Shown: positions 9,192 to 36,948 of the stretch, in pieces
Numbering within the stretch: position 1 is the first letter of the stretch
Layout of the letters: every line of letters starts with the position of its first letter
From: Candidatus Adlerbacteria bacterium
GTDB taxonomy: Bacteria > Patescibacteriota > Minisyncoccia > Phycocordibacterales > SBAW01
Reading direction: 5' to 3'
NCBI GenBank assembly: GCA_026397405.1
Contig: JAPLUW010000001.1
Location: 407,064 to 471,063, forward strand
DNA: 64,000 bases
Program-made: the position numbers and the translations under genes
Notes under the pieces: model-generated
What the model was told of the DNA's origin: nothing
What the model saw: the letters and a program-made list of their open reading frames with translations, nothing else
The model's database searches: none

Positions 9192-10232
9192 TTAATGCAC
9201 TACTACTGTGGCGCTTATAGTTGCCTGCTGGCCCGTGTCGTTTGAAACAGTAAATGTTGGGTGGTAGGTGCCAGCGGTAACATACATGTGGGTAAATGTT
9301 GCTGATGTTTGTATTGGTTGCCCATTTGCAACTGCGGCATAGGCGTAGGTAGTTTCGTCACCCCACACGCTCTGGTAGTGGAGGTTGGCGCCGTTTACAT
9401 AATTTTGCAAGGTTGCGCGGACTGTCCATGTGCCTGTTTGCCCGACAATCAACTGCGGGGGAGCATCAATACCGCTAATCACAGGTGTTTGGTTTTGTGC
9501 GCTCTGGTCAGTGACATAGAAGTTTACAGTATTGCTTGTGCCGTTTTGGTTTTGTACGTACACCTGATAGGCCCCGGGTGTAGTAGGGCGGACCCACAAG
9601 GCCGAGACTTCGGACGACATTGCACAATATGCGCCTGGCGGGCAGTTGGGAGATATATATTGTGGAACAGTAAATGTCAGTGTCGTTCCGTTGTTTGAAT
9701 ACACAGCGTCAAGCGCTTTGCCGCCAAAGTATACGGTGTTTGTTCCGTACAACCCTGACCCATACAAGGTGACAACTGTTCCAATAGGCCCGCTCTGGGG
9801 CGACATAGTTTGTACAGACACTTGTTGTACAGGAGGCACGGGTTGCGGCTGTGGGTATGGATACGGCGGGTAGGTAGTGGTTGTACAACCTATCTGTCCA
9901 AATACGCCGCGGGTCATCACACCTACATACCCTGTCCGCGGGAGGCCGTGCGCTGCTTGGAAGTTTTGTACTGCACGGAACGTGAGCGGCCCAAAAATAC
10001 CAATGGGCGAATAGGGGAAGTATCCTTGAGTAGAAAGAAACGCCTGCAAGTTAGTGACATCGGCATTTTGTAACCCCAAATATAGATTGTTGTAAAACAC
10101 TGGGCATGTCGTTGGTGCAGGCGCATATATAAGGTTAGGAGCCTGTGCAAGTGCGGCATAGGTAGGCAACAAAAGCCCTGCCATAAGTGTAACTGCAACC
10201 ACAGTGCGCTTTACGTTTACGCTTAGAGTCAT
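9192..10232 (-). CDS. secreted peptidoglycan-binding domain protein with Pro-rich linker and C-terminal beta domain
   Basis: Signal peptide ...AALAQA. PG_binding_1-like segment LQAFLSTQGYFPYSPIGIFGPLTFRAVQNFQAAHGLPRTGYV. PYPYPQPQPVPP linker. Confidence 0.65.
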   Translation of the reverse strand: MTLSVNVKRTVVAVTLMAGLLLPTYAALAQAPNLIYAPAPTTCPVFYNNLYLGLQNADVTNLQAFLSTQGYFPYSPIGIFGPLTFRAVQNFQAAHGLPRTGYVGVMTRGVFGQIGCTTTTYPPYPYPQPQPVPPVQQVSVQTMSPQSGPIGTVVTLYGSGLYGTNTVYFGGKALDAVYSNNGTTLTFTVPQYISPNCPPGAYCAMSSEVSALWVRPTTPGAYQVYVQNQNGTSNTVNFYVTDQSAQNQTPVISGIDAPPQLIVGQTGTWTVRATLQNYVNGANLHYQSVWGDETTYAYAAVANGQPIQTSATFTHMYVTAGTYHPTFTVSNDTGQQATISATVVVH

Positions 10233-10296
10233 AGACTGGTGATGACGGGCCGCACTTGTCCTGCTTACACTACAGCAATGTTGTATACTAGTAGGT

Positions 10297-10599
10297 ATGT
10301 ATACACATCACTATGGGATGGATCAGAGCTTTTTTATCAACTTGCCGTTTTGGTCGTCTCCGTTGTTTGGGTTAGTGGCAGTAGCCGCACTGTGGTCGCT
10401 TGTGTGGAAAGGTTTGGGGTTGTGGCACGCAAGCCGTAATGGCCAGCCGTGGTGGTTTATGGCTATCTTTGTTGTTAACACTGCTGGGATCTTGGAGATA
10501 TTCTACTTGTTTTTTGTGGCAAAGCTCAAGTTTGACCAGCTCTTTACCAAGGGTAATTCGCACGCACACGTTCACCCTCATCACGACCACACGCACTAA
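10297..10599 (+). CDS. small membrane protein with His-rich C-terminus (hypothetical)
   Basis: 100 aa with two TM helices and a C-terminal HAHVHPHHDHTH tail. It lies immediately upstream of lexA. Confidence 0.5.
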   Translation: MYTHHYGMDQSFFINLPFWSSPLFGLVAVAALWSLVWKGLGLWHASRNGQPWWFMAIFVVNTAGILEIFYLFFVAKLKFDQLFTKGNSHAHVHPHHDHTH

Positions 10600-10625
10600 A
10601 CTTATCCACATGCATTAGTGTATCT

Positions 10626-10664
10626 TGTGTATTAATTACACAAAAAGTTGATACACTAGTGTAT
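10626..10664. promoter_or_regulatory. candidate LexA operator: two adjacent palindromes TGTGTATTAATTACACA and ATACACTAGTGTAT overlapping the lexA start
   Basis: Perfect inverted repeats at 10626..10642 and 10651..10664, directly upstream of and overlapping the lexA start codon region. Confidence 0.45.
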
Positions 10665-11330
10665 ATGTATATCCAAAACCTTTTAACGTTCAAGCAGCAA
10701 CGGGTGCTTAATGTGGTGCGGGAATATCTCCGGACAGAAAATATGTCCCCAACGCTCGAACAGCTTCGTGAAAGTTTGGGGTTTAGTTCGCTCCGCACGG
10801 TCACGCAATACTTGGACATTTTAGAGCGCAAAGGCTACATCGTCCGCCGCAAAAACGCCGCACGTAATATCGAACTGCGCAACGTCGACGGGGCGTGGGG
10901 GACAGTGAGCATTCCCGTTATAGCAAACGTTGGCTGCGACGATCTTTCGGTGTTTGCCCAGCAGGAGGTGGACGAATTTTTAGAAGTCGACAAGCGTATT
11001 GTTGAAGAGGAGGACGGCGACATTGTCGCGGTGCGGGCAATTGGCGACAGTATGAACGATGCAGGCATCAACACCGGCGACTACGTTCTTATCCGCTTTA
11101 CCGACCACGCAGAAACTGGCGACCGTGTGGCTGCCATTGTTAACGACATGGTCACAGTTAAACGGCTCGAAAAACGCGACGGCATGACAATACTCTGGCC
11201 CGAGTCGAAAGACCCTAAATTTAAGCCTATTATCCTTAAAGAAGACTTTAAAATTGCCGGCAAAGTGCTGTGCGTGATACCTGCCCCACAGATGGAGGTC
11301 ACCGAAGTGGTGCCCTTGCCCGAATGGTAG
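10659..11330 (+). CDS. lexA: LexA repressor (S24 peptidase)
   Basis: N-terminal winged-helix LexA DNA-binding domain. C-terminal S24 domain with catalytic Ser (GDSM) and Lys (TVKRL). The track start at 10659 is GTG, and an ATG follows 6 nt later. Confidence 0.9.
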   Translation: MYMYIQNLLTFKQQRVLNVVREYLRTENMSPTLEQLRESLGFSSLRTVTQYLDILERKGYIVRRKNAARNIELRNVDGAWGTVSIPVIANVGCDDLSVFAQQEVDEFLEVDKRIVEEEDGDIVAVRAIGDSMNDAGINTGDYVLIRFTDHAETGDRVAAIVNDMVTVKRLEKRDGMTILWPESKDPKFKPIILKEDFKIAGKVLCVIPAPQMEVTEVVPLPEW

Positions 11331-11704: not shown

Positions 11705-11728
11705 CTGCCAAAAAGCTATACTGTCTGT

Positions 11729-12415
11729 ATGAAGGTGTGGATAAACCGAATATTCCTTGTTTTGTTTTCGGGCTTTATAGTGTGTGCTGGGATAATTGCC
11801 TATGCAGACATTGTTACAGCGCCGTTTATATATTCCGCAACAGAAACACCGCCACATGCAGAAGTTGCATTGGTGCTGGGCGCTTCTGTTTCATCAAGCG
11901 GGAAGCTTTCGGCAGTGATGGCAGAGCGTGCCGACAAGGCGGTCCAGCTGTACAAAGCAAAAACAGTAGAAAAAATTTTAGTAACAGGAGACAACAGTAC
12001 TCTTTCGTACGATGAGGTCTACCCAGTTGGAAAATATTTACTTATACAAGGAGTGCCTGAAGAAGATATATTCCTAGATTACGCAGGGTTTGACACCTAC
12101 AGCAGTATGTACCGCGCACGCGAAGTGTTTGACGTTACCTCGGTGGTTGTAGTTTCTCAAGCGTTCCATTTGCGCCGCGCTGTATTTATCGCGCGTTCGC
12201 TTGGGCTCGATGCCACCGGCATCGACGCATCCCGAGGAGAAAGATATGTGTGGTACACAATGCGCGAAATCCCTGCATCTATTAAAGCAGTTCTCGACCT
12301 GTGGTCGAAGCGGGTGCCAAAATATTTAGGTGTACAATTTCCAGTTGGGGGTGACGGCTCAACAACCTGGGTTGGGAGCAGTGCACAGATGATATATTTC
12401 CAAAATCAAAACTAA
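11729..12415 (+). CDS. SanA/ElyC/YdcF family (DUF218) membrane-anchored protein
   Basis: N-terminal TM helix. DUF218 core VALVLGASV...ILVTGDN...[13 protein letters not shown]. Start placed at ATG 11729, downstream of the csp terminator. Confidence 0.8.
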
Positions 12416-23777: not shown

Positions 23778-23865
23778 GGAGGCGTCGGATAGTGGTTTAT
23801 TCCACCATCTTGGAAAGATGGCATACCGCAAGGTATCGTGAGTTCAAATCTCACCGCCTCCGCCA
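23778..23865 (+). tRNA. tRNA-Ser (anticodon GGA), CCA encoded
   Basis: Manual fold: acceptor GGAGGCG/CGCCTCC, anticodon loop TTGGAAA, long variable arm, T-loop TTCAAAT, G73. Confidence 0.85.
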
Positions 23866-23892
23866 TAAGAAAATTGTCTATAATTGCAGTAC

Positions 23893-23982
23893 GGAGAGAT
23901 GGATGAGTGGTTTAAATCAACAGTTTACTAAACTGTCGACCCTTAATTGGGTCCGCGAGTTCGAATCTCGCTCTCTCCGCCA
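23893..23982 (+). tRNA. Ser-type tRNA (long variable arm, G73) with apparent anticodon ACU; its 3' end overlaps the left inverted repeat of the mobile element
   Basis: Manual fold: acceptor GGAGAGA/TCTCTCC, D stem GAT/ATC, anticodon stem ACAGT/ACTGT, loop TTACTAA, T-loop TTCGAAT, CCA encoded. Confidence 0.75.
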
Positions 23983-24096
23983 AAATTCGGAATTCAAATT
24001 TCCGCCAAAAATATGGTCGGCGCGAAGCGCCGTCTGTTCTGCATTCCCCCCAAAAAATTCTGATTCAGAAAGGATTTTCCACGCTCCGCGTGGCTC
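23977..24096. repeat. IR1-L: 120-nt inverted repeat (partner 25341..25452, 119/120 identical)
   Basis: Reverse complement of 25341..25452. Contains the dyad site CCACGC-TCC-GCGTGG at 24079..24093. Overlaps the last ~34 codons of the recombinase gene and the tRNA 3' end. Confidence 0.9.
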
Positions 24097-25319
24097 AAAA
24101 TTCGATCCTTAATTTGAAAGTTCGAACCGACTTTTTTGAACAAATGAATATTTTCCTCATTTGTTCGGTCGTTTGCCAATTCCATATTGTATTTCAAAAA
24201 CTTTTCGGTAAGTTCGAACCGATTATTCGCTTTTATACCGTCCGCAAAAAGCGTACTCGATTGGACTTCCGATTGCCGATCTTTTGCATTCTCGGCAATC
24301 ATCCAATTTGCCCAATCGAGCGGCAAAGAAACTTTTTTGATTTCCTCTTGAATTTGAGAAGTGATGAGTTCCTCGCGGACATACTTCTGCTCACAAGGAT
24401 TTTTCCGTTTGGTACACCGCAAATAGTGATGACCTTTTTGTTGCTCGGTTGTTATAAAACATCCACATTCTCCGCAACGGAAAAATCCTCTGTACAAAAA
24501 TAGTTTCAGTCCTTTGGAGTGAGGTTTACTTTTCCTCATCATCACTTCTTGAACGGAATCAAAAAGTTTCTTTGTGATAATCGGTTCGTGCTTTCCCTCA
24601 AAAATCTCTCCGTTATATCGCATTAGACCAGTGTAAATAGGATTTTTGAGAAGTTTTTGATAATTCGACACCGCAAGCTCTCTACCGCTTTTTCTTTTCA
24701 ATCCAAGCCCATTAAACTTGTCGCGGACTTCCCTCAAAGTGAAGTTTCCAGTTGCATATGCCTCAAATGTCTTTTTCACTAAAATCGAAAGTTCGGGATG
24801 AGGCACAATACCTTTTCCTTTCTCGTTCACATAGCCAATCGGAGACATTTGAGGCCATATTCCTTCCTTCACTTTGTTTCTGTGTCCGCGCTTAATATTC
24901 TCCGACAAGTTATCTACATAATACTTGGATTGCGAAAAAGCGATTGAGAGCATGAATTTCCCTTGCGGTGTCGGATCAAACCAAAAAGTTGGAAATTTCA
25001 TTTCTACGATTACGCCAGTATCAACGAGGTAGATTATTTTTCCTCCATCTACCGAGTTGCGAGCAAGTCTATCGGGATGCCACGCCAAAATACCAGACGC
25101 CTCGCCTTTTTCCATTCGCTCCACCATTTCATTAAACACAGGGCGACCTGGTATTTTGGCGGTCTGCTTTTCGACAAAGACATCAACCACTTCCAGTTGT
25201 TCTTTCAACGCGAGTTCTTTTAACTCACTCAACTGGTCGGAAATACTGCGGACTTGTCTGTCTTTGTCGTCCGTAGACTTGCGAGTATAAATGAAAAACT
25301 TTTTGGTTTGATTATTCAT
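23994..25319 (-). CDS. large serine recombinase (resolvase/invertase catalytic domain + recombinase domain + zinc ribbon)
   Basis: N-terminal YTRKSTDD...ISDQ...LAWHPDRLARN resolvase fold with nucleophilic Ser. Central recombinase domain. Cys-rich zinc ribbon CGECGCF...YLRC. 441 aa. Confidence 0.9.
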   Translation of the reverse strand: MNNQTKKFFIYTRKSTDDKDRQVRSISDQLSELKELALKEQLEVVDVFVEKQTAKIPGRPVFNEMVERMEKGEASGILAWHPDRLARNSVDGGKIIYLVDTGVIVEMKFPTFWFDPTPQGKFMLSIAFSQSKYYVDNLSENIKRGHRNKVKEGIWPQMSPIGYVNEKGKGIVPHPELSILVKKTFEAYATGNFTLREVRDKFNGLGLKRKSGRELAVSNYQKLLKNPIYTGLMRYNGEIFEGKHEPIITKKLFDSVQEVMMRKSKPHSKGLKLFLYRGFFRCGECGCFITTEQQKGHHYLRCTKRKNPCEQKYVREELITSQIQEEIKKVSLPLDWANWMIAENAKDRQSEVQSSTLFADGIKANNRFELTEKFLKYNMELANDRTNEENIHLFKKVGSNFQIKDRILSHAERGKSFLNQNFLGGMQNRRRFAPTIFLAEI

Positions 25320-25340
25320 AGATTTGTATTGGCAAACGAC

Positions 25341-25452
25341 GAGCCACGCGGAGCGTGGAAAATCCTTTCTGAATCAGAGTTTTTTGGGGGGAATGCAGAA
25401 CAGACGGCGCTTCGCGCCGACCATATTTTTGGCGGAAATTTGAATTCCGAAT
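25341..25452. repeat. IR1-R: inverted partner of IR1-L
   Basis: Contains CCACGC-GGA-GCGTGG at 25344..25358. Confidence 0.9.
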
Positions 25453-25661
25453 TTTGGCGGTGTGTATTAAACAAAGTTCGAATGTATTTTGAGTTGAATC
25501 CTGACTCCGACTAATCGCACGCGCGGAGCGCGTAGTGGCTCTGGATTGAACCGTACGCCCCGATTGCGTGGGGAAACGAACCAATGCGCCTCGGACAGTC
25601 TCCTCCCCCCACCCCTCCACCGCGAAGCGGAAAAAGAAATGGAAAGGAAATTTTTGGTTTT
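25449..25661. repeat. IR2-L: ~213-nt inverted repeat (partner 35209..35431), identical except two indels
   Basis: Reverse complement of 35209..35431 is identical over ~165 nt. There is a 48-nt insertion here and a 57-nt insertion in the partner. Contains ACGCGC-GGA-GCGCGT at 25511..25525. Confidence 0.9.
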
Positions 25662-25744
25662 GCTTCGCCGTTGTCAATAATCTCATCTATTGTAATATAT
25701 CACATTATTGATATACGGCACAACAAACTGATACACTATAAACT

Positions 25745-25957
25745 GTGGATATGAAAACATCATCAATAAAACTGGGGAAAAACATAAAGCGCATACGAGA
25801 GCGAAAGAAAATGTCGCAAGGCGACATTTGTCGTGCACTCGGCTTTGATCGCGCTCAAATGAGTAATATTGAGGGCGGTAAGGGAAACCCGACACTTGCT
25901 ACTATTGAAAAAATCGCCCAAGCATTAGGAGTCGCTAGCGACGAACTTTTGAAATAA
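25745..25957 (+). CDS. XRE-family HTH transcriptional regulator
   Basis: 70 aa with a Cro/C1-type HTH (QGDICRALGFDRAQMSNIEGG...TLATIEKIAQALGV). Confidence 0.85.
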   Translation: MDMKTSSIKLGKNIKRIRERKKMSQGDICRALGFDRAQMSNIEGGKGNPTLATIEKIAQALGVASDELLK

Positions 25958-25959
25958 AT

Positions 25960-26823
25960 ATGACAACAAAAATATACAAATTCATACCACTCACACTGCT
26001 CGCACTATTTGTCTTCGCTCCGAGTCTTGTTCTAGCCCATCAACCTCGCATTACCGAGAGCAGGCAAACACAAGTCCCTAGTCCAGAAATTTCCAAAGCG
26101 TATTACGGCAAGCTTACCGGCGAGCCAGATGTCTATGTCATACAGGCAAGCGAGCCCTTTGATCTCTACGTCAATATACTCGTCCCCGATATTGCCGGCC
26201 AAAAGAAAGATGTCTCTGCCGTAGTCATTAAAGACGGCAATGTTGAAAAACCTCTGGCAGTTCTTGACGGTATACATTTTGAATGGAAGAAGTTTTATGA
26301 ACCTTTTGGTGCTGACAGCTACTGGATGGGGCCAGAGTACAAGGCCCGCGCAGTAGCTGGTATGTATGAGATCCGCGTATCGAGCCCAAACAACGACAGC
26401 AAGTACTCACTCGCCATCGGCGAGATAGAAGCTTTTGACGGCAAGGAGGGATTGAATGCACTCACTGTCATCCCCGAGCTAAAGAAAAACTTTTTTGAAG
26501 TATCTCCAATAAGTTTTATTAAATCACCGTTCGGCTGGGGACTTATCGTGGTTATGTATATTCTTGCGTTCATTGTGGGCTTCATCTACCGCACAATTTT
26601 GAAAAAGTTTGCCAAAAATTCTTCCCGTGGCGTTGCCCGAAATATCGGCAAGCCCGACCGCTTGCTCCGTGCGGTCATCGGCGTAGCATTACTCCTATGG
26701 GCTATCACCACCACATGGAGCCCTATCCTCATCTTCTTCTCCGGCTTCGCATTCTTTGAGTCGATATTTAGCTGGTGTGGATTTTATGCAGCTCTCGGCA
26801 AAAACACCTGCCCGGTGGAGTAA
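25960..26823 (+). CDS. secreted/membrane protein with C-terminal DUF2892-like (YgaP-type) TM domain
   Basis: Signal peptide. Soluble ~190-aa domain. C-terminal two-TM segment ending SWCGFYAALGKNTCP, typical of DUF2892. Confidence 0.6.
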   Translation: MTTKIYKFIPLTLLALFVFAPSLVLAHQPRITESRQTQVPSPEISKAYYGKLTGEPDVYVIQASEPFDLYVNILVPDIAGQKKDVSAVVIKDGNVEKPLAVLDGIHFEWKKFYEPFGADSYWMGPEYKARAVAGMYEIRVSSPNNDSKYSLAIGEIEAFDGKEGLNALTVIPELKKNFFEVSPISFIKSPFGWGLIVVMYILAFIVGFIYRTILKKFAKNSSRGVARNIGKPDRLLRAVIGVALLLWAITTTWSPILIFFSGFAFFESIFSWCGFYAALGKNTCPVE

Positions 26824-26943
26824 AAATTTACGGCCAAAGTATCACTTGCCACTGAAGATTGGGGTTCGCAAATAGGATGGGGAGGGAATAGTGGCTATTG
26901 AAAAATAAAGTTTATAATAGAAGTAAGGACTGAAGATACATAA

Positions 26944-27210
26944 ATGGATACTATAACCATACACACGATTGCCATCATTGCGTTTATTATCTGGAGTTTT
27001 CCTCTGGGATTGTTTCGCAGTCGATTTAGGAAGATGGTCTATCAAACTGATAGCTGGTGGATTAATGTAAAGCCCGTTTTTTGGGAGGAGATCAAAGTGC
27101 TTTTTGGCTTTCATCAGCGCACGAAGAGGGCAGAGTTGCGGCTGATTAATTTCTATCGTTTTTATCTGATCGTATACTTCGCTATTTTAATTTTAATACT
27201 ATCAACCTGA
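26944..27210 (+). CDS. small membrane protein (hypothetical)
   Basis: 88 aa with two hydrophobic helices. Followed by hairpin 27309..27350. Confidence 0.45.
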   Translation: MDTITIHTIAIIAFIIWSFPLGLFRSRFRKMVYQTDSWWINVKPVFWEEIKVLFGFHQRTKRAELRLINFYRFYLIVYFAILILILST

Positions 27211-27352
27211 TAGATAAATACTACCTACACCTTGTACTCATACCATGAGAAGCCCACATGAGCGCCACCCTCCTGGCTTTTTTAGTTGGGTGGGGGAGGT
27301 GGTAGAATAAAACGTAAATTTAGTCGATATTCGTGTATAATTTACGTTTTTC

Positions 27353-27381
27353 TTGACTTATTTTAATAAATAGACTATAAT
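27353..27381 (+). promoter_or_regulatory. consensus sigma-70 promoter upstream of fic (-35 TTGACT, 17-nt spacer, -10 TATAAT)
   Basis: TTGACT at 27353..27358 and TATAAT at 27376..27381, 14 nt before the ATG. Preceded by an 11-bp-arm hairpin plus T-run (27309..27350). Confidence 0.55.
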
Positions 27382-27395
27382 TTGAGTAAATATTT

Positions 27396-28289
27396 ATGAA
27401 AAATATACCCAAAAAAGTCCAAAATATCATAGATTTAAAAAAGAAATTCGATGCTCTTAAAAAGGGCAAAGATTCTCTTTTAACTATTCTTGAAGATGTA
27501 GAGTTGGCGGAATCTGTTTATAACTCAAATGCTATTGAAAACAGCACACTTACTCTACCTGACACAGAAAAAATACTATTGGATCTGGAAGTTTCTAAGG
27601 ATTATTCTTTACGTGAAGTTTTTGAAGCCAAAAATCTAGCTCGTGTATATGAATACATAAAGATAAAAAAAGATAGTATTGTTCTTAATCAAAAAACAAT
27701 GCTTTTTCTCCATAGCCTGCTTATTGGTGGCATAGATGATTCGATTGCTGGCAGGTTTAGAAAAGAGAGCGAATATGTCAGAGTTGGCAAACATGTAGCT
27801 CCAGCGCCAGAACATGTAATACGAATGATCGAGGTAATTCTCGATGAATACAAATCAAATCATGATGCAAATGTATTTGCCAAGATTGCTCACTTCCATT
27901 TACAGTTTGAAACAATACATCCATTTTGTGATGGGAATGGGCGTATTGGGCGTGTATTAATAAATCTGCAACTTCAGGAATTTGGTTATCCAAATATAAT
28001 TATTCGTGATAAAGAAAAGCAAGTTTATTATAGAACTTTTACACATTTTCGTGATACAAAATCAACAAAGCAAATGGAGAAAGTTATACATCTTGCATTG
28101 TTAGAGGGTTTACACAAAAGGATTGCATATTTAGAAAGCGCAACCATAGTCACTCTTTCTGCTTACGCAAAGAAACATTCATTACCCCTTGCAAATCTTA
28201 TCAATAGCGGAAGACGACAAACTATTCCAGCTTTTCGTGAAAAGGGTATTTGGAAAATAGGAGTTGAATATAAAAAAATAGATTTATGA
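27396..28289 (+). CDS. Fic family protein (AMPylator/NMP-transferase) with N-terminal inhibitory motif
   Basis: Fic motif HPFCDGNGRIGR. N-terminal [ST]xxxE[GN]-type inhibitory motif SNAIEN. Confidence 0.9.
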   Translation: MKNIPKKVQNIIDLKKKFDALKKGKDSLLTILEDVELAESVYNSNAIENSTLTLPDTEKILLDLEVSKDYSLREVFEAKNLARVYEYIKIKKDSIVLNQKTMLFLHSLLIGGIDDSIAGRFRKESEYVRVGKHVAPAPEHVIRMIEVILDEYKSNHDANVFAKIAHFHLQFETIHPFCDGNGRIGRVLINLQLQEFGYPNIIIRDKEKQVYYRTFTHFRDTKSTKQMEKVIHLALLEGLHKRIAYLESATIVTLSAYAKKHSLPLANLINSGRRQTIPAFREKGIWKIGVEYKKIDL

Positions 28290-28363
28290 AGAAAATTATT
28301 TAAAAATTGCAAAGGAGTATCTGTCTAAAAACTAATTTCATATACAAATGGTATAATAAATGT

Positions 28364-30034
28364 ATGAATGAAATTTTTTATACGGATGTCGCTAATGATT
28401 TGCGTACAATAATCAAAGGAGATATTTCTATCTTAGACAGTGATCGAGAAAAAGCTGCGCGAGACACAAGCCTTTTTTATGTAAAACCTCGCATTGTTGT
28501 CTACCCAAAAAGCAAAGAAGACATTGCAAGACTTGTTGCTTATGTGCATGCAAAAAAAACTAAAGATATAGATCAGGGTGTTCCGTTATCCCTCACCATG
28601 CGAGCCGCTGGTACATGTATGACCGGTGGCCCACTTTCGGAATCCATCGTCGTAGACACAATGAAATACATGAATCATGTATTTTCTGTCACCGACACAG
28701 AGGCCATAACAGAGCCGGGAGTATACTATAGTGATTTTGAGAAAAAAACTCTTGCGCACGGCTGGCTTTTGCCAAGCTATCCGGCGTCTCGTGATTTGGC
28801 TGCGATTGGAGGTATTGTCTCTAATAACTCAGGAGGTGAAAAGACACTTACCTATGGAAAGACGGAAAAGTATGTTCGCTCGCTCCGTGTTGTATTTGCA
28901 AATGGAGAAGAAGATGTTCTAGAACCACTTCATGCAGAGAAACTTATCGCAAAATGCGAAGAGCAAACTGAAAGCGGGCGAATTCATCGAGAGATATTTG
29001 CCCTTGTAAAGGACAACTATGATGTACTGCAACAAGCAAAACCGACAGTAACAAAAAATTCTTCGGGGTACTATCTTTGGAATGTCTACGATAAAGAATC
29101 AGGAGTATTTGACCTATCAAAGCTCGTTGTGGGCAGTCAGGGAACCCTTGCCTGTGTGACTGAAGCGACATTGAGTGGAATTGCCCCCAAAAAACATTCC
29201 AGAATGCTCGTTATGTTTTTGCCAGCCACAACACAACTAGGAGAAATAATTCCAAGACTTTTAAAACATACACCTGAAACCATCGAATCTTATGATGATC
29301 ATACGTTTAAAATAGCGATTAAATTCTTTGGCTCAATTGCAAAAAGCATGGGGGGTACTATGTTGACGCTCGGGTTCCAATTTTTGCCTGAGTTTTGGAT
29401 GGCAATCACTGGCGGAGTTCCAAAGATAATTCTCATGGCAGAATTTGCAGGGGATACTGAAGAAGAAGTTGCAGAGCAGGTACAGTCAGCATATAACGAG
29501 ATGAAGGTATTCGGATTTCCTATTACATTGACGCACTCGGAACAAGAAGCAAAAAAGTATTGGACATTCAGGCGCGAAAGCTTCAACCTGCTTCGCCAGA
29601 AGTTGCGAGGGTATCGAACGGCACCCACAATTGATGATATTGTCGTACACACAAAAGATCTCCCGGAGTTTCTTCCCAAACTTGAAATTATTTTTTCAAA
29701 ATATGATCTTATTTATACTGTAGCCGGACATATGGGAGATGCAAACTTTCATATTATTCCGCTTATTGACATTCATAAAGAAGGAATAGTTGAGACTCTC
29801 CACACACTCATGGATGAAGTCTATACTCTCGTATTTCAGTATGGAGGTTCTATGTCTGGAGAACATAATGACGGACTTTTACGTACCTCGTACCTTTCGC
29901 AGATGTTTAACCCTGAGATCGTACGTCTCTTTGAAAAGACAAAAGATATTTTTGACCCGCTTGCTATTTTAAACCCAGGTAAAAAAGTGTATGGAGACAA
30001 GGGTTTTGCGTGGAATCATATTGATACAAAATAA
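28364..30034 (+). CDS. FAD-linked oxidase (FAD_binding_4 / GlcD-like, D-lactate dehydrogenase family)
   Basis: FAD-binding PCMH domain (VVYPKSKEDIARLV...RAAGTCMTGG) and a C-terminal FAD-oxidase_C region. Start moved to internal ATG 28364. Confidence 0.8.
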   Translation: MNEIFYTDVANDLRTIIKGDISILDSDREKAARDTSLFYVKPRIVVYPKSKEDIARLVAYVHAKKTKDIDQGVPLSLTMRAAGTCMTGGPLSESIVVDTMKYMNHVFSVTDTEAITEPGVYYSDFEKKTLAHGWLLPSYPASRDLAAIGGIVSNNSGGEKTLTYGKTEKYVRSLRVVFANGEEDVLEPLHAEKLIAKCEEQTESGRIHREIFALVKDNYDVLQQAKPTVTKNSSGYYLWNVYDKESGVFDLSKLVVGSQGTLACVTEATLSGIAPKKHSRMLVMFLPATTQLGEIIPRLLKHTPETIESYDDHTFKIAIKFFGSIAKSMGGTMLTLGFQFLPEFWMAITGGVPKIILMAEFAGDTEEEVAEQVQSAYNEMKVFGFPITLTHSEQEAKKYWTFRRESFNLLRQKLRGYRTAPTIDDIVVHTKDLPEFLPKLEIIFSKYDLIYTVAGHMGDANFHIIPLIDIHKEGIVETLHTLMDEVYTLVFQYGGSMSGEHNDGLLRTSYLSQMFNPEIVRLFEKTKDIFDPLAILNPGKKVYGDKGFAWNHIDTK

Positions 30035-30057
30035 AAAATTTGTAGCCATTCTTAATT

Positions 30058-30447
30058 TTGCTATACTACAAGCATATGGAACATACAACTATACAGAGTC
30101 AGACCCCTACTCCTGAAAATAACTCGCCACTGACTCAACAAAAATGCATGGCATGCGAGGGTGGTGTCATTCCTTTTTCAAAGATAGAGGCAGATATATT
30201 ATGCAAGCAAATTCCCGGCTGGGATATTTCGCTTGATGCTAAAAGTATCGCCAAGCGATATGGTTTTAAAGACTTCAATGAAGCTCTTGTTTTTGTAAAT
30301 AAGGTTGGCGTTTTGGCTGAATCAGAGGGGCATCATCCGGACATATATCTGAAAGACTACAAATTTGTAGAGCTCACACTGTCCACCCATGCAATTAACG
30401 GACTCTCTCAAAATGATTTTATTCTTGCGGCTAAAATAGACGCCTAA
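30058..30447 (+). CDS. pterin-4-alpha-carbinolamine dehydratase (PCD/DCoH) with short Cys-containing N-terminal extension
   Basis: PCD signature region FNEALVFVNKVGVLAESEGHHPDIYLKDYKFVELTLSTHA. Confidence 0.85.
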   Translation: MLYYKHMEHTTIQSQTPTPENNSPLTQQKCMACEGGVIPFSKIEADILCKQIPGWDISLDAKSIAKRYGFKDFNEALVFVNKVGVLAESEGHHPDIYLKDYKFVELTLSTHAINGLSQNDFILAAKIDA

Positions 30448-30539
30448 TGTACTAGTATAATTCCATTAAACTATGATTAATCATTCTCCCTGTTATAGTT
30501 CTTGCAATGAAATCATGGTGGATATTAATAAATAACATT

Positions 30540-31667
30540 ATGGAAGAATCTTTGACAAAAAAACTCGATTTTATAGTCATAGGCGCAGGTATTGCCGGGC
30601 TTTCGTGTGCTTATCACCTCACCAAAGATGGTTACAGCGTCATGGTGTTCGAGAAATCGGACGGAAAAGATAATGCAAGCTATGCCTCTACCGCGGAGAT
30701 GAATCACGATCCGGACGCAAGCTGGGATAGGATCATAAGTAAGTTTGGTATTCGGGGGGCAAGGTACATCTGGAAACTTTCTGAATTTTCTGCGCAGAAA
30801 CTTACGAAATTCGCACATCGTCCGGGGTCGGAACACTTTTCGACCAAGCGAGTGCCGGCGCATATTTTTACCTATGACCAGAAAGGCGTAACGCTCTTAA
30901 AAAAGAGATTTGAACTATATAAGAAAATAGGGGCACAGGTTACGTTCACAGAAAACGCAAAATCTCTGCACAAGAATTTTCGTTCCTCGATAACTATAAA
31001 AAACGAAGGCGCAACAAATAACCAAGCTCTACTAATAGCTCTCCGGGCCGCCACGCACGAACAGGGTGGCAAGGTTATGTACAAGACGCCAGTAGTAGAT
31101 CTCAAGGTCAACAAGCAGGGGGTAGAAGTCAGAACAAAAAAAGGGAATATATTTCATGCAAAGCATGTGATACTCGCGACAGGCGGAATAGAGCTCATTA
31201 ATCTCCCGATCAAGATTGGGAGAGAGCGAACGTTTGTTGTGAGTTACAAAAAGCGAAATATGGACAAACTTTTCTCGTCTTCGCTCCTGTGGGATACAGC
31301 TGAGCCATTTCATTACATCCGTTCATTTGTAGGAAAGCGACTTTGGGTCGGAGGAGAAGACGTGGCAGAGGAATCCTATACACCTAGCTCGGACAAAAGG
31401 CATATTGCTGCACTGGATAAATATTCCAGAGAAGTATTGGCACTTGATTCCTCATACGTTCTTGAAAAGAAAAAAAGTTGGAGCGGAGTTTTTTTTCCGA
31501 CCGCGCGTGGATTGCCGTATATTGGCGACGTAGCCGGAACACCTATAAAACTTGCATTAGGATTCGGTGGGTCAGGTATTCTTATGTCTTTTGTATCTGG
31601 ATATCTAATTGCCTCATGGCTGAAGAAAAAAGAAATGAAATACAAACCGCTGTTCAAGATATGGTGA
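30540..31667 (+). CDS. FAD-dependent oxidoreductase (DadA/glycine-oxidase-like)
   Basis: Rossmann DFIVIGAGIAGLSCAYHL. C-terminal GG..G (FGGSGILMS). Confidence 0.8.
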   Translation: MEESLTKKLDFIVIGAGIAGLSCAYHLTKDGYSVMVFEKSDGKDNASYASTAEMNHDPDASWDRIISKFGIRGARYIWKLSEFSAQKLTKFAHRPGSEHFSTKRVPAHIFTYDQKGVTLLKKRFELYKKIGAQVTFTENAKSLHKNFRSSITIKNEGATNNQALLIALRAATHEQGGKVMYKTPVVDLKVNKQGVEVRTKKGNIFHAKHVILATGGIELINLPIKIGRERTFVVSYKKRNMDKLFSSSLLWDTAEPFHYIRSFVGKRLWVGGEDVAEESYTPSSDKRHIAALDKYSREVLALDSSYVLEKKKSWSGVFFPTARGLPYIGDVAGTPIKLALGFGGSGILMSFVSGYLIASWLKKKEMKYKPLFKIW

Positions 31668-31750
31668 ACTTTTACTCCGAATTGGGGAGCTAAGATGTCG
31701 GGGAAAAGGGGCTGGAAAACTGAGGCTTTTAGTGTCTGATCAATACAAAT

Positions 31751-31782
31751 AAAAAAACTCTAACTTTTGTTAGAGTTTTTTT
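31751..31782. terminator. bidirectional rho-independent terminator between convergent genes
   Basis: AAAAAAACTCTAAC...GTTAGAGTTTTTTT. Confidence 0.7.
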
Positions 31783-31801
31783 ATTTGTATTTCAGATGTA
31801 T

Positions 31802-32203
31802 TTATTTTGGCATCAAGACTGAGTCGATGACATGGATTACTCCGTTTGTACATTCTATGTCTGTTTGTACTACTTTGGCGTCGTTTACCATAACTCCATT
31901 TGCAGTGTCTATTTTAACTTCACCACCCTGTACTGTCTTTGCAGAAGTTAGACCCATTACATCAGAAGCCATTACTTTTCCTGCCACTACATGGTACGTA
32001 AGTATAGCTGTTAGCTTTGCTTTATCCGCGAGGACTGCATCGAGAGTCTCTTTTGGAATTTTGGCGAAAGCCTCATCAGTTGGAGCAAATACAGTGAAGG
32101 GCCCTGCACCAGATAGAGTGTCTACTAATCCTGCTACTTGTACTGCTGTTACTAAAGTTTTAAAGGATCCTGCCGCGACAGCTGTTTCTACGATATTTTG
32201 CAT
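31802..32203 (-). CDS. fasciclin (FAS1) domain protein
   Basis: [11 protein letters not shown]...LTYHVV...[13 protein letters not shown]1 motifs. Confidence 0.85.
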
Positions 32204-32265
32204 ATATTTATTTTAAATTGATTAAATATTGTTAATGCATACATGAAACAATTCGGGGTCGGAGA

Positions 32266-32472
32266 TTACTTTCTTCCAAGGTTTCCTAATTGAGTAAGAA
32301 GGTATACAGCTGATAGTCCTACCAATGTATATACTATTCTTGAGATTGCTGACATGTCACCAAACAGAGTTGCAACTAAGTCGAAATTTATTACCCCAAC
32401 TAATGCCCAGTTTAGACCACCTACAATCACAAGGATCATAGATACTAAATCCAATAAGTTTAATTTATTCAT
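32266..32472 (-). CDS. DUF378 family small membrane protein
   Basis: 68 aa. VGGLNWALVG motif. Confidence 0.8.
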   Translation of the reverse strand: MNKLNLLDLVSMILVIVGGLNWALVGVINFDLVATLFGDMSAISRIVYTLVGLSAVYLLTQLGNLGRK

Positions 32473-32584
32473 TTTATTTTTTTAATATTTTAAATTATCA
32501 ATTCGACCTTCCTCACTTGATATAGTTATATTATAAGATTTATGATAAAATAATGCAATACTTGTTTATAATTAACAATAACGT

Positions 32585-33241
32585 ATGTCGATGAATAAAA
32601 CTATGATCAATATACTTATCGCTTTGTTTGTTATTGTGGTGCTTTGGTCTATCTCAGGATTTTTTGGTTCTCGTGTTGAGCAAGCTGACTATACTGTCCT
32701 TGAGATAAAGGATGGATATGAAATACGAGAATATCCGGCACATATCGTAGCGCAGACTATGGTAAAGGGTTCTTATGGAGAATCTATGAATAATGGTTTT
32801 AGAATTGTGGCTGGGTATATCTTTGGCGGGAATACAAAAAAAGAAAGCATAGCCATGACCGCTCCAGTCGTCGCGCAAAGTGGCAAAGGTGAAAAAATAT
32901 CAGAAAGCATAGCCATGACTGTACCAGTCGTCGCGACGACTGAGGGCGACTCGCAAATAATATCTTTCGGCATGCCTCGTTCTTATACTCTGGAAACATT
33001 GCCGACACCAAATGATCCTCGAGTGAAAATTGTGATGATTCCTACCAAGAAATATGCAGTACTGCAGTTCTCATGGTATCGCTCGGATGCTCGGGTAAAA
33101 AACATGCAAGAAAAATTAGCTTCGGCACTTGCTCGTGATGGAGTAGCAACAAAGGGAAACACTGCATACGCTGGATACAATGCACCGTGGACTCCACCGT
33201 GGATGAATCGTAACGAAGTATTGGTTGAAATTATTAATTAA
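32585..33241 (+). CDS. SOUL/HBP heme-binding family protein with internal 20-aa tandem duplication
   Basis: SOUL-like fold (N-terminal TM, GYIFGGN, C-terminal ...YNAPWTPPWMNRNEV). 60-nt tandem duplication at 32843..32935 (ESIAMTAPVV / ESIAMTVPVV). Confidence 0.75.
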   Translation: MSMNKTMINILIALFVIVVLWSISGFFGSRVEQADYTVLEIKDGYEIREYPAHIVAQTMVKGSYGESMNNGFRIVAGYIFGGNTKKESIAMTAPVVAQSGKGEKISESIAMTVPVVATTEGDSQIISFGMPRSYTLETLPTPNDPRVKIVMIPTKKYAVLQFSWYRSDARVKNMQEKLASALARDGVATKGNTAYAGYNAPWTPPWMNRNEVLVEIIN

Positions 33242-33252
33242 TCTTATTTTTT

Positions 33253-33651
33253 ATGTTCATAAAACTTTACGCAATCGCATTACCAGTTTTCTTCGCCATC
33301 GACATGGTGTGGCTCGGGCTCGTGGCCAAAGACTTTTATCGAGGGCAAATAGGCACGCTTATGAAAAGTGATGTCAACTGGACCGCGGGGATTATTTTTT
33401 ACCTGATATTTATTGTGGGACTAGTGGTATTTGTCATCACACCAGCCGTGGAAAGGGGCTCATGGACGCACGCACTACTTTTCGGTGCGCTGTTTGGTTT
33501 GGTGTGTTATGCAACCTATGACCTCACCAACCTCGCGACACTCAAAGATTGGCCATTGCTCGTAACTATCGTTGATTTAGCGTGGGGTGCAGTACTCGCG
33601 GCTTCCGTATCTACCGCGACATACTTCATCGCAAGCAAGATCGGTTTATGA
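33253..33651 (+). CDS. DUF2177 family membrane protein
   Basis: 132 aa with 4 TM helices. YDLTNLATLKDWP motif. Confidence 0.65.
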   Translation: MFIKLYAIALPVFFAIDMVWLGLVAKDFYRGQIGTLMKSDVNWTAGIIFYLIFIVGLVVFVITPAVERGSWTHALLFGALFGLVCYATYDLTNLATLKDWPLLVTIVDLAWGAVLAASVSTATYFIASKIGL

Positions 33652-34412
33652 GTTATTACACAGCGCTCATTTTACTATTGTTTGCATACATGAGCCTGTG
33701 GTTTGCGGTTTCTTTGATTAAAAAAAGGAATGATGTGGCTGATGTGGCATGGGGTCTGGGATTCGTACTCATGACATGGGTGTCTTTTTTTCTTTCGGAT
33801 GATTCGGGAGTAAGAGGGCTGCTGGTGGGTATCTTGGTAACTGTGTGGGGCTTGCGTTTGGCGTGGCATATTCATGCACGAAACAAGGGCAAGGCGGAGG
33901 ACTATCGGTATCTCGCGTGGCGGAAAGAATGGGGCAAGTGGTTTTATATTCGTTCGTATTTCCAAGTCTATCTTTTGCAAGGTCTGTTTTTGTTTCTCAT
34001 CGTTCTGCCAGTACTGCTTATAAACAAAAGTGCAAGCGGAGATATCGGCTTACTCGATTTCTTAGGCGTAGCCGTTTGGCTCTTTGGTTTTTATTATGAA
34101 GCTGTCGGTGATGCACAACTCGCCCGATTTATTAAAAATCCTGCAAACAAAGGTAAGCTACTGCAAAGCGGACTGTGGGCATATACTCGGCATCCAAATT
34201 ATTTTGGTGAAGTAACGCAATGGTGGGGCATTTGGCTTGTCGCGCTTTCTGTACCTAGTGGTTGGTTTAGTATAATTGGGCCGATAACTATAACCTTTTT
34301 GATTTTGAAAGTTTCAGGTATTCCTATGCTCGAGAAAAAAATGGAAGAGAATCCAGATTTTGCAGAGTATAAAAGTAAAACAAGCGTATTTATTCCGTTG
34401 CCTAGAAAATAA
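33648..34412 (+). CDS. DUF1295 / 3-oxo-5-alpha-steroid 4-dehydrogenase-like membrane protein
   Basis: YTRHPNYFGEVTQWWGIW motif. Start ATG 33648 overlaps the previous stop (ATGA). Confidence 0.8.
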   Translation: MSYYTALILLLFAYMSLWFAVSLIKKRNDVADVAWGLGFVLMTWVSFFLSDDSGVRGLLVGILVTVWGLRLAWHIHARNKGKAEDYRYLAWRKEWGKWFYIRSYFQVYLLQGLFLFLIVLPVLLINKSASGDIGLLDFLGVAVWLFGFYYEAVGDAQLARFIKNPANKGKLLQSGLWAYTRHPNYFGEVTQWWGIWLVALSVPSGWFSIIGPITITFLILKVSGIPMLEKKMEENPDFAEYKSKTSVFIPLPRK

Positions 34413-34418
34413 CGTAGC

Positions 34419-34856
34419 ATGCATAATTTTGATCCACGCTTTAAACCAGACCTTACTCCAAAAGAAATGCTTCGTCTTGGAGTCTTTGGCGGATTATATT
34501 TTTCTGATAAGCCGAAGGAATTTCCAAAAGATTGGTGGCGGAGTGCAAAATTATCACCCGATGGAAAACGGCACAAAGAACTGAATTATTTTGGCGTGAA
34601 TGCCAGTCAGCCGCTTTCAGTGTGGCAAGCCAAAGGCTGGATCAATCCACAAGATCCACGTGGATGGTTTCAGTGGTATTGCAGATACTATATGGGTCGT
34701 AGAACAGCCGACGACGAGCGACAAATTAAAAGATGGCTCGCTATGCGACGACATATAATGCAAATCAAAAATAATTGCAGAGCTGAAGATATTTTTTGTC
34801 GGCCTCGCCAAAGACAAGCGGTATTGCATTGGGCCTATGACGCGAGAAAAATGTGA
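34419..34856 (+). CDS. conserved hypothetical protein (possibly DUF4385)
   Basis: 145-aa soluble protein. GWFQWYCRYYMGRR...DERQIKRW. Confidence 0.5.
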   Translation: MHNFDPRFKPDLTPKEMLRLGVFGGLYFSDKPKEFPKDWWRSAKLSPDGKRHKELNYFGVNASQPLSVWQAKGWINPQDPRGWFQWYCRYYMGRRTADDERQIKRWLAMRRHIMQIKNNCRAEDIFCRPRQRQAVLHWAYDARKM

Positions 34857-35208
34857 TCTAGGGAGCAATCCCCGTTGTTTTATAATGTTTTCTAAAAACG
34901 GCGAGGATTGTTGTGCGCGCATAGGGCGGGCGGGGCAAGCACATACAGATTTGTTTGTGCCTATGCACAATCCATATTCTTTAGGGTTACCACTCCACTC
35001 CCTCGAAGCCACCAAGCGAACAGACACAACGCCAAAGCAGCCAGCGCGAGCGAATGCGAGCGGGCTATGCGGAGGCGATTGTGTGTGGTTCGCGGACTCT
35101 AGAACTACCACTAAACGTCGCTATGGCACGCGCCTCGGTCGCCACAAGGAAATGGAGCAAATGGGCTTCATTGTGATAACTTTGTTGCCCTTTGTGGAGT
35201 TTCCTTGT

Positions 35209-35431
35209 GGCGAAGCAAAACCAAAAATTTCCTTTCCATTTCTTTTTCCGCTTCGCGGTGGAGGGGTGGGGGGAGGAGACGCGAGAAAAATGCAAGGAAA
35301 TTTTTTGGTTTTTGCACACGCGAGTCCGCGAGCGTGTCCGAGGCGCATTCCACTACGCGCTCCGCGCGTGCGATTAGTCGGAGTCAGGATTCAACTCAAA
35401 ATACATTCGAACTTTGTTTAATACACACCGC
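35209..35431. repeat. IR2-R: inverted partner of IR2-L
   Basis: Contains ACGCGC-TCC-GCGCGT at 35355..35369. Ends ...ACACACCGC followed by AAAAT. Confidence 0.9.
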
Positions 35432-35600
35432 AAAATAATGCGCCCGACAAGTATGTATTGGGGGGGGATTATATTTTTGCGTGAGAAGCGGATATTTATA
35501 ATTCACCCAGTGCTCCTAGCACGACATCTATTAATAGGTAATAATGTCACTACTGAAGGCCGTTTTCATACGTATCTTTATTCTCTAATACAATTCACAC

Positions 35601-36344
35601 ATGCATTTAAAAGGACTTGTTGATTATGCCCAACCTTTGGTGGCAGCGGGAACGGTGCTCTCATTGGCCTTTGTCATCTCTGTTGGTATCGGGGCATACA
35701 CCTCCTACCAAATTAAGGTGGAAAGTAACACCATCGAAGTGACGGGTTCGGCAAAAGAATCAGTCGTTTCTGACTTTGGACGTTGGACCATTAACCTTAC
35801 TACCGCGACATCTGTCGATAATCAACAAGTGGGGTTCGACCGGTTGGAGAATGCCTCAAAACATATTCTTGCGTATCTTGCTGGCCAGGGATTCGCGAAT
35901 GTAGAAACTCCTGCTCCTGTAGTCGATTCGAGTTATATATATCCTGAAAAGAGCGCACCTATACTTACTGGCTATACAGTATCGCGCCAGATAATTGTAA
36001 GCAGTGCTGACATTGATAAGCTTTCAGTGCTTGCAGGGTCGGTAGCTCCGCTGTCTGGCTTTGGGTATAACGTAACTACAAATAGCGTAGAGCTTACGTA
36101 TCAAAAACTTCCGGAAGAAAGAGTCGTGCTGCTCTCAGGTGCCATTAAAGATGCACAGGCTCGCGCGGAAGCCATCGCAAAAGAAACTGGAAGGTCGGTA
36201 GGGGCCCTTAAGTCAGCCACGGGCGGGGTAGTACAAGTCCTTCCTAAAGGCGGTGTTGATATAAGTGACTCTGGTATGTATGACACCTCCAATAAAAATA
36301 AGGATGTGATGGTTACTGTGCGAGCCAGTTTCATTTTGAAATAA
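35601..36344 (+). CDS. SIMPL domain (DUF541) membrane-anchored protein
   Basis: N-terminal TM. SIMPL-like ~220-aa domain. Confidence 0.65.
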   Translation: MHLKGLVDYAQPLVAAGTVLSLAFVISVGIGAYTSYQIKVESNTIEVTGSAKESVVSDFGRWTINLTTATSVDNQQVGFDRLENASKHILAYLAGQGFANVETPAPVVDSSYIYPEKSAPILTGYTVSRQIIVSSADIDKLSVLAGSVAPLSGFGYNVTTNSVELTYQKLPEERVVLLSGAIKDAQARAEAIAKETGRSVGALKSATGGVVQVLPKGGVDISDSGMYDTSNKNKDVMVTVRASFILK

Positions 36345-36419
36345 CGGATGTTTTAGGAGGCTCAGAAATTGGGGTTAGTAGTATTCTCCGTCAAAAGAAA
36401 AACGAACACAAAGTGTTCG

Positions 36420-36863
36420 TTAGAGATTTCGAGCATTTAGTTGCTCCTGTGTGAGTTCGTCTAGCGTAATTACAAATCCCAGGCCGTGGAACATGTCTAT
36501 CACGCGGTCGATAATACTGTATACAGGGCGTGGTAGCGGGTTGCCCCAACCTGGGTCGCCTCCATGCCATCCGAACGAAAGCACAGTGTGCGGTGCCAGG
36601 GATGACACGTCCGCTTGTTCGTGAGGTACAAGTTTGTCTTGCTTCAATATTGCAGTCAGTGCTTCACGTACAAGCGTTACCATTGTGGGGTCGGTAATTA
36701 TTACATCCCAACTACAGGTAAGGTTGCGCTCTTGTATGTCGATATGGTGTAGCTCGTTGATAACGACGGTGTACTTTTCGCAAAGAGCTTTTGCACGCGC
36801 CTCGCTAATTGAAGAAGTAAAACCACTCTTTCTAGTGCCCGTGCACAGTATGAGGTTCGGCAT
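36420..36863 (-). CDS. hypothetical protein
   Basis: 147-aa ORF with no motif I can name confidently. It is divergent from the DnaA-domain gene, and the palindrome 36928..36948 lies in the shared intergenic region. Confidence 0.5.
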   Translation of the reverse strand: MPNLILCTGTRKSGFTSSISEARAKALCEKYTVVINELHHIDIQERNLTCSWDVIITDPTMVTLVREALTAILKQDKLVPHEQADVSSLAPHTVLSFGWHGGDPGWGNPLPRPVYSIIDRVIDMFHGLGFVITLDELTQEQLNARNL

Positions 36864-36927
36864 GAATGTATCTCCTTGTGCGTTGTGTCCGAATATTGAA
36901 ACGAATTTTATAAGTGAAAAGTCACCA

Positions 36928-36948
36928 AGTTTCTAAATTTAGAAAACT
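36928..36948. promoter_or_regulatory. perfect palindromic operator-like site AGTTTCTAAATTTAGAAAACT
   Basis: 10-nt arms. Sits in the 146-nt divergent intergenic region upstream of the DnaA-domain-IV gene. Confidence 0.45.

Follow-up and report, generated by a model that had tools for sequence, protein, structure and literature searches.

Upstream of the lexA gene in a 64,000-nucleotide stretch of a Candidatus Adlerbacteria genome (contig JAPLUW010000001.1, positions 407,064 to 471,063; this whole stretch is called the window below) lies a cluster of GTGTAT hexamers that we take, with a probability of roughly 0.7, to be LexA's own operator, the region as a whole then being the one through which a leaderless lexA gene is autoregulated in this lineage of the Parcubacteria (Patescibacteria). 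An earlier note on this DNA, made from the letters alone, had proposed an SOS operator built of two palindromes in front of lexA. The conserved unit turned out instead to be a direct repeat, GTGTAT-N3-GTGTAT, together with a single start-proximal GTGTAT or ATACAC. The identity of the gene, which the note had recognised from a helix-turn-helix region, an S24 peptidase region and the motifs GDSM and TVKRL, was confirmed by its matches to the Pfam families PF01726 (LexA_DNA_bind, 8.8e-14) and PF00717 (Peptidase_S24, 2e-18) and by a search of solved structures, in which the top match was full-length E. coli LexA (1jhf, 1.4e-22). The catalytic Ser-Lys dyad is present, GDSM and TVKRL aligning with the Ser119 and Lys156 motifs of the E. 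coli protein, and among the 120 closest LexA homologues G[DENT]SM occurs in all 120 and TVKR[LF] in the 95 in which the pattern was found. The open reading frame list opens the gene at GTG 10659; the orthologue alignment favours ATG 10665, where the orthologues open with M-x-I-Q-N-L.

The half-site itself stands out clearly from the background of the window. Five GTGTA/TACAC pentamers fall within 46 bp (10618-10663), the sole cluster of at least four within 80 bp in the 64 kb, where such pentamers average about one per 490 bp and the next weaker group consists of three (42432-42491). A weight matrix of the conserved repeat gave 31.6 bits at the lexA operator and less than 9 bits at all other positions of the window; one repeat-like match, GTGGATCTTGTGGAT at 34645, lies inside a coding region and was rejected as chance. 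Both inverted repeats were located where the note had placed them, and the second of them, ATACACTAGTGTAT (10651-10664), is a perfect 14-mer palindrome that abuts the ATG and contains the alternative GTG. The first, TGTGTATTAATTACACA (10626-10642), is an inverted repeat and no perfect 17-mer palindrome: its 6-nt arms TGTGTA and TACACA are perfectly inverted around a 5-nt spacer, TTAAT, that is not palindromic. Searched for singly with mismatches allowed, neither palindrome pattern is striking, the window holding 4 matches to one where 1.45 are expected and 5 to the other where 2.33 are expected, which is not clearly above chance. An Rfam search of 10200-10700 returned no RNA element, and the palindromes sit upstream of the inferred transcription start.

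Comparison of orthologous promoters carries most of the argument. When the LexA protein was used to scan genomes at species level, 19 loci came up, 18 of them close (75-100% identity) and nearly all of these labelled Candidatus Adlerbacteria or Patescibacteria, and further loci came from look-ups of the exact protein. The best of them, JBAXLB010000003.1 from a Candidatus Adlerbacteria metagenome-assembled genome, encodes a LexA that is 100% identical, at 92.5% nucleotide identity over 6.7 kb. About 20 orthologous promoters of the Adlerbacteria type were compared, 18 of them in a formal alignment, and they share one order of elements: a DnaA-type box, 5-7 variable bases, the direct repeat GTGTAT-(C)(T)T-GTGTAT, some 20 variable bases, an extended -10 element, GTGTAT or ATACAC, and the ATG. 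Invariant columns among the 18 aligned promoters are T-T-C-A-C-A in the box, GTGT and GTGTA in the repeat, TA...T in the -10 and the ATG, the rest being scrambled. The alignable promoters keep the direct repeat with at most two mismatches and unchanged spacing; the most divergent locus, L018, is without it at the aligned position. Directly after the -10, GTGTA or its complement TACAC follows in most orthologues (GTATA in L017 and L026), and in L003 this proximal unit still adjoins the -10 though a 30-nt leader separates it from the ATG. The motif is thus present in the lexA promoter itself in about 20 Adlerbacteria loci and, as variants, in about seven other Parcubacteria loci. Two points of the earlier note are borne out by these results: that GTGTA/TACAC is the relevant half-site, and that the sites overlap the lexA promoter and start as expected for autoregulation, by their conservation in about 20 orthologous promoters.

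The same comparison bears on the proposal that TGTGTA-N5-TACACA and ATACAC-N2-GTGTAT are the functional units, each bound symmetrically by a LexA dimer, with a third site drawing the upstream DUF5652 gene into an SOS unit. Both inverted repeats are indeed present with perfect arms, palindromic operators are the usual LexA arrangement, and L013, L006 and L038 likewise have good inverted pairs beside the repeat. Of the two palindromes, however, no more than two arms are conserved: the left one of the first, being unit 2 of the direct repeat, and the right one of the second, being the proximal unit. The inverted partner TACACA that completes palindrome 1 is kept in L001, L005, L006 and L013 and more weakly in L002 and L008, so that this arm recurs in only about one third of the orthologues and is missing in about two thirds, with a spacing that varies from N2 to N5 where that of the direct repeat is invariant; it is probably an accessory half-site. 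The left arm of palindrome 2 is supplied by the -10 hexamer, TACACT in the window, TATACT in the closest relative L001 and TAGAGT, TAGTAT or TATAGT elsewhere. Palindrome 2 is therefore broken in L001 (ATATACTAGTGTAT), and it is absent in most other orthologues, which have a different -10 hexamer. The element in front of DUF5652 is explained by a -10 and coding sequence, as described below. We consider the palindromic model very unlikely, and a genome-wide scan for TACAC-N2-GTGTA or TGTGTA-N5-TACACA, which the note had recommended, would probably find nothing, since those arrangements are peculiar to this species.

The geometry of the promoter suggests how LexA could act on the direct repeat. 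In 12 of the 38 genes considered in the window, a TAnnnT hexamer ends 6-7 nt ahead of the ATG, against a background of about one per position, and a Shine-Dalgarno-like sequence precedes only one of the 38, which suggests that leaderless mRNAs are widespread there; examples lie at 10284-10299, 11714-11732 and 49394-50101. A strict -35/-10 scan upstream of lexA gave no canonical sigma-70 promoter, consistent with an extended -10 promoter at this gene, and the form TGnTAnnnT is found in most orthologues. From the TAnnnT peak 6-7 nt before the starts and the near-absence of Shine-Dalgarno sequences we infer that lexA transcription starts at or near A10665 and that the lexA mRNA is apparently leaderless. 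Counted from a start at the ATG, the repeat would span about -47 to -33, with the proximal unit at -6 to -1, so that the two bracket the -10, which would be the classical arrangement for a repressor as far as start positions deduced from sequence allow.

In the mechanism that we propose, LexA would bind GTGTAT half-sites, with the tandem GTGTAT-CTT-GTGTAT as the obligatory operator and a further GTGTAT between the extended -10 and the start. Two extra inverted half-sites in this genome, TACACA at 10637 and the ATACAC that arises from the -10 hexamer, would create both palindromes. With LexA occupying sites to either side of the -10, the way of RNA polymerase would be blocked and lexA repressed by its own product; without LexA the repression would be lifted. 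A separate protein of unchanging specificity, most likely DnaA, might bind TTATCCACA and provide a second input. It is hardly credible that the motifs are only core promoter features (a -35 or UP-like element and start-site context) or chance repeats that no regulator reads. Such an account could point to cTTGTGT, which runs across the spacer and unit 2 and whose TTG resembles the start of a -35, and to the position of the proximal unit at the start site; yet TTGTGT lies 21 nt from the -10 and is therefore too far away for a -35, the other leaderless promoters of the window are without such an element, the cluster is unique in 64 kb, and the proximal unit flips its orientation between subclades while remaining complementary to the repeat.

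Further support for LexA as the reader of the repeats came from their co-variation with its recognition helix. Where the helix reads S[LIM]R[TS]V (Adlerbacteria, L030, L035 and L036/L037), the repeat is GTGTA(T/G)-N3-GTGTA(T/G/C). Where it reads SPR[AS][VA] (L031, L034 and L039), the repeat is GTAT(A/G)T-N3-GTATAT, and ATATAC stands before the ATG in L031 and L034. With the helix SIRSVTQR, at locus L038, the promoter has GTGTAG-GTT-GTGTAG followed by GTGTAG-N4-CTACAC, in which CTACAC abuts the ATG. The distal repeat and the proximal unit thus change jointly and track the LexA helix across a small number of independent clades, and the neighbouring box stays TTAT(C/G)CACA. Since the hexamer units vary with LexA and the 9-mer is constant, two readers are most simply assumed, LexA for the units and DnaA for the 9-mer. 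The pairing of the variants GTGTAT, GTATAT and GTGTAG with their recognition helices also makes up a natural data set on the drift of LexA specificity.

These data speak as well to the idea that another transcription factor, or a phage or mobile-element repressor of the same specificity, binds the repeats and that the LexA operator lies elsewhere or is absent. The link between LexA and the site rests on sequence comparison, no SOS-type regulon was found in the window or in a metagenome scan, and sets of GTGTAT-ATT-GTGTAT occur in the control region of a phage (L091) with no LexA gene in the available stretch, all of which would fit such a factor. Against it, the site is tied to lexA at every locus despite changing neighbours, its sequence tracks the LexA recognition helix, and in promoters this short no further conserved element is left as a candidate; control of its own gene is, moreover, what is normally seen for LexA. 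We regard another factor as unlikely. The phage sites came from scans of viral contigs for the repeat, whose results were mostly chance matches and 9-bp tandem repeats of giant-virus and phage contigs, only L091 (IMGVR_UViG_3300035698_005122) looking relevant. There, in a divergent intergenic region (9700-9900) between a terminase and a primase/helicase-like gene, GTGTAT-ATT-GTGTAT(-ATT-GTGTAT) occurs in three sets, of which two are inverted and one is direct and which include TTATACACA; the unit is that of the L036/L037 lexA operator. These repeats may reflect a phage wired to its host's LexA, or they may be iterons.

Beside the operator, and 7 nt upstream of the repeat, stands a 9-mer, TTATCCACA, that matches the DnaA-box consensus TTATNCACA exactly. 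Its form in the orthologues is T(T/A)ATCCACA, at 2-7 nt from the direct repeat, and it is kept in nearly all Parcubacteria lexA promoters examined (L001-L039), including the clades with an altered repeat. In 297 kb of locus sequence, where about 9 matches to TTATNCACA are expected, 26 occur, about 20 of them in the lexA promoter region and 16 at the box position; outside lexA promoters the frequency is at chance level. DnaA regulates promoters as well as origins. A replication origin at the box was considered and rejected: only one strong box stands in the intergenic gap of 65 bp, there is no GC-skew switch, and the box is specific to lexA promoters. No dnaA or dnaN was found among the window proteins in a Pfam scan. 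A 185-aa protein encoded at 37010-37567 (+) is little else than the C-terminal DNA-binding domain of a DnaA (PF08299, 4.6e-11) and is a possible alternative reader of DnaA-type boxes; its gene is the only one examined in the window with a clear Shine-Dalgarno sequence. Two other exact copies of TTATCCACA occur in the window, one at 60248-60256 (-), about 125 nt upstream of a small gene (59866-60123, -), and one at 11736-11744 (-), in the first codons of a DUF218 gene and not conserved in relatives.

With a true DnaA-type box so close, the GTGTAT units could be imagined to be weak DnaA boxes themselves (TGTGTATNN resembles TGTGNATAA, the reverse complement of TTATNCACA), making this a DnaA-controlled promoter or a cluster of boxes. 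The units match a relaxed DnaA box at 6-8 of 9 positions, the perfect box is conserved 2-7 nt away, and in some orthologues the proximal unit is TTATACACA, a full match to TTATNCACA. In the clade with the SPR helix, however, the units GTATAT and ATATAC lose the CACA core while the box stays TTAT(C/G)CACA, and within each clade position 5 is always C in the strong box and always A in the units, which suggests two readers. The units are also oriented opposite to the strong box, at a variable distance and with a 9-bp period, cooperative DnaA arrays having a period of about 11 bp, and no GC-skew switch or origin-like region was found. This leaves only a slim chance for weak DnaA boxes, and LexA is retained as the reader of the hexamers.

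Several observations weigh against a LexA operator of this kind or limit how far it can be taken. LexA as the binder, the repression, the leaderless mRNA and DnaA at the box have all been deduced from sequence. The co-variation comes from few independent clades, GTATAT being represented by three loci and GTGTAG by one, and a rigid dimer model does not fit a proximal unit that occurs in either orientation between subclades or inverted partners spaced N2-N5. With the repeat matrix, neither the 64-kb window nor 3-10 kb of flanking DNA at about 20 loci gave a second site. A metagenome scan anchored on recA, in which GTGTA-N4-GTGTA had to lie 212-271 nt ahead of the codons for the RecA P-loop, yielded just two contigs; both come from outside the Candidate Phyla Radiation (CPR) and are richer in GC (67% and 54% G+C), and the yield is about that of chance. 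The Cys-Asp pair at the LexA cleavage site, described below, means further that inducibility of the circuit by DNA damage is not assured.

Recurrence of the operator upstream of other damage genes, for which the earlier note had proposed a scan, was not seen in the sequences covered: window and flanks hold no further site, and the metagenome scan gave no CPR recA match. Within the window, Pfam searches of about 45 proteins revealed no recA, uvrA, dinB or ruvAB, only an endonuclease III-like protein, a DEAD-box helicase and Ham1, and none of these three genes carries the motif. On L024, the contig of 67% G+C (recA-recX-alaS), GTGTAG-ATT-GTGTAG lies at 2299-2313, about 50 nt upstream of recA, probably by chance, since the scan required GTGTA-N4-GTGTA. 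Two hints of further sites were noted among the lexA loci. In L034 (15416-15505), a repeat of that clade's own type, GTATGT-TCA-GTATAT, abuts TTATAAT at a NERD-domain gene, and GTATAT stands 3 nt from the ATG; this gene is the best candidate across the loci for a second LexA-regulated gene, as a hint only. In L038 (760-800), the region in front of uvrA-uvrC contains the 11-mer AAGATGTGTAG, an exact copy of the left edge of the L038 lexA operator; it is a single half-site, 24 nt before TATACT, and likewise only a hint.

The cleavage site of the window LexA departs from that of E. coli LexA. Where other proteins have V-A-A-G-E, the window protein reads VGCDD (10926-10940, residues ~88-92), so that Cys-Asp aligns with the scissile Ala84-Gly85, in place of the Ala-Gly or Cys-Gly bond of LexA. 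Wherever the loop could be located among the 120 closest homologues, Cys-Asp is invariant; among 70 LexA representatives, [C/A]-D occurs in 26, including nearly all of the closest, and [A/C]-G in 41. In the relatives P0146 and P0169 the corresponding stretch reads AGCG within the same local surroundings. The 1jhf structure is that of the G85D mutant of E. coli LexA; G85D is the non-inducible lexA3 allele, whose product is not cleavable. We put forward, tentatively and as something we think improbable, that lexA across Parcubacteria is under a composite promoter, a DnaA box abutting a direct-repeat LexA operator, and that, should this promoter and the Cys-Asp of this clade's LexA both be functional, these bacteria of reduced genome have a rewired SOS-like switch. 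The switch would then read the status of the replication initiator through DnaA, inactivation of LexA would be unusual, possibly RecA-independent or very slow, and the regulon might comprise little more than lexA itself. In any case, the DnaA-type box and the Cys-Asp pair matter for the question whether a classical SOS response, inducible by damage, exists in Patescibacteria at all. The literature searched mentions no lexA promoter with a DnaA box, and both the conserved box next to the operator and the cleavage-site substitution may go beyond published work.

Immediately upstream of lexA, the DUF5652 gene has a promoter of its own. The related element that the earlier note had placed at about 10275-10300 does exist, lying some 7 nt further right at 10282-10306 (TGTATACTAGTAGGTATGTATACAC), and it is not an operator. 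At seven orthologous loci, the region in front of DUF5652 reads TGTATACT, 6-8 nt, ATGTATA(C/T)(A/G)CAT, and none of the seven has the direct repeat. The element is the gene's own -10 (TATACT), a predicted leaderless start and the first codons (ATG TAT ACA CAT, giving MYTH, or MYMH). In other relatives, DUF5652 lies 1-1.4 kb from lexA or is absent. A two-gene SOS unit, as the note had suggested, is thus not supported. The features of the region are collected in Table 1.

Table 1. Features in and around the lexA control region of the window (all on the + strand; positions relative to the start refer to the inferred transcription start at the ATG).
Feature	Coordinates	Strand	Remarks
Element upstream of DUF5652, TGTATACTAGTAGGTATGTATACAC	10282..10306	+	-10 TATACT 10284-10289, 7-nt spacer, ATG TAT ACA C from 10297
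DUF5652 gene, small membrane protein with His-rich C-terminus, own promoter	10297..10599	+	Pfam PF18893, 9.4e-21
DnaA-type 9-mer TTATCCACA	10602..10610	+	exact consensus match; about -63 to -55; 7 nt upstream of repeat
Direct repeat GTGTAT-CTT-GTGTAT, putative core operator	10618..10632	+	9-bp period; about -47 to -33
TACACA, inverted partner of repeat unit 2 and right arm of palindrome 1	10637..10642	+	about -28 to -23
Putative extended -10, TG (10649-10650), a, TACACT (10652-10657)	10649..10657	+	supplies left arm of palindrome 2; TGnTAnnnT in most orthologues
Promoter-proximal half-site GTGTAT, right arm of palindrome 2	10659..10664	+	-6 to -1
lexA coding sequence	10665..11330	+	Pfam LexA_DNA_bind and Peptidase_S24; E. 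coli LexA structure match; ATG 10665

Mobile elements were met both in the window and at related loci. A stretch of the window at about 23778-37000 has a low GC content (0.40-0.43 against 0.49), starts beside two tRNA genes (23778-23979) and a large serine recombinase (23994-25319, -) and carries genes for Fic, FAD oxidases, SOUL and DUF1295; an integrated mobile element is the probable explanation. At L032, L033 and L035, Parcubacteria LexA homologues with divergent recognition helices (NSINS, NYINS and one KSLRT) lie within mobile or defence islands that also carry serine recombinases, ParB-methylases, SMODS/Cap15 genes resembling the cyclic-oligonucleotide-based antiphage signalling system (CBASS), a reverse transcriptase with bAvd, and NERD genes, which suggests that these island-borne LexA-like proteins are repressors of mobile elements.

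For this uncultured lineage of reduced genomes, the analysis offers a concrete candidate operator with the core GTGTAT-N3-GTGTAT and corrects the palindromic reading. The note was right that the half-site matches no E. coli, Gram-positive or alphaproteobacterial LexA box; its further claim, that the motif would define the LexA box of the lineage, is not supported in view of earlier work. Sanchez-Osuna, Barbe and Erill reportedly described a LexA-binding motif of Patescibacteria, with a small regulon, in Environ Microbiol in 2017 (PMID 28618189). According to PMC7739468, LexA has evolved direct-repeat recognition several times independently, and the Patescibacteria SOS study is cited there among the examples. 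As far as that citation goes, the motif belongs to the same superphylum and regulator and has the same direct-repeat architecture, on which alone the two are compared, and the tandem hexamers with their fixed 9-bp period agree with it. Given this citation (PMC7739468), the architecture found here is expected for the superphylum, and the operator is probably of the direct-repeat LexA autoregulatory type and, as a motif class, not novel.

Among the LexA systems described in other phyla, that of the Balneolaeota comes close in half-site. Its LexA binds the direct repeat TTACACATATTTTWTACATA in gel shifts (PMC7739468), and the half-site TACACA/TACATA approximates the complement-strand reading of the units in the window (ATACAC); its period is about 13 bp, compared with 9 bp here, the phylum is a different one, and in contrast to the present operator a regulon has been demonstrated for it, with recA, polymerases IV and V and others. 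Direct repeats are also among the 17 LexA motifs that have been reported (PMC8565304), and the alphaproteobacterial GTTC-N7-GTTC cited there is likewise a LexA direct repeat, with another half-site and an 11-bp period. The 9-mer at 10602-10610 is identical to the E. coli DnaA boxes R1/R4 (TTATCCACA, consensus TTATNCACA), but it is a single box as opposed to the cluster at the origin. The lexA promoter of E. coli, finally, with its two CTGT-N8-ACAG boxes, likewise has several LexA sites that overlap the gene's own promoter and mediate negative autoregulation; it does so with palindromic 16-mers, a Shine-Dalgarno leader and no DnaA box, whereas the Adlerbacteria promoter combines tandem hexamers, an apparently leaderless start and a DnaA-type box.

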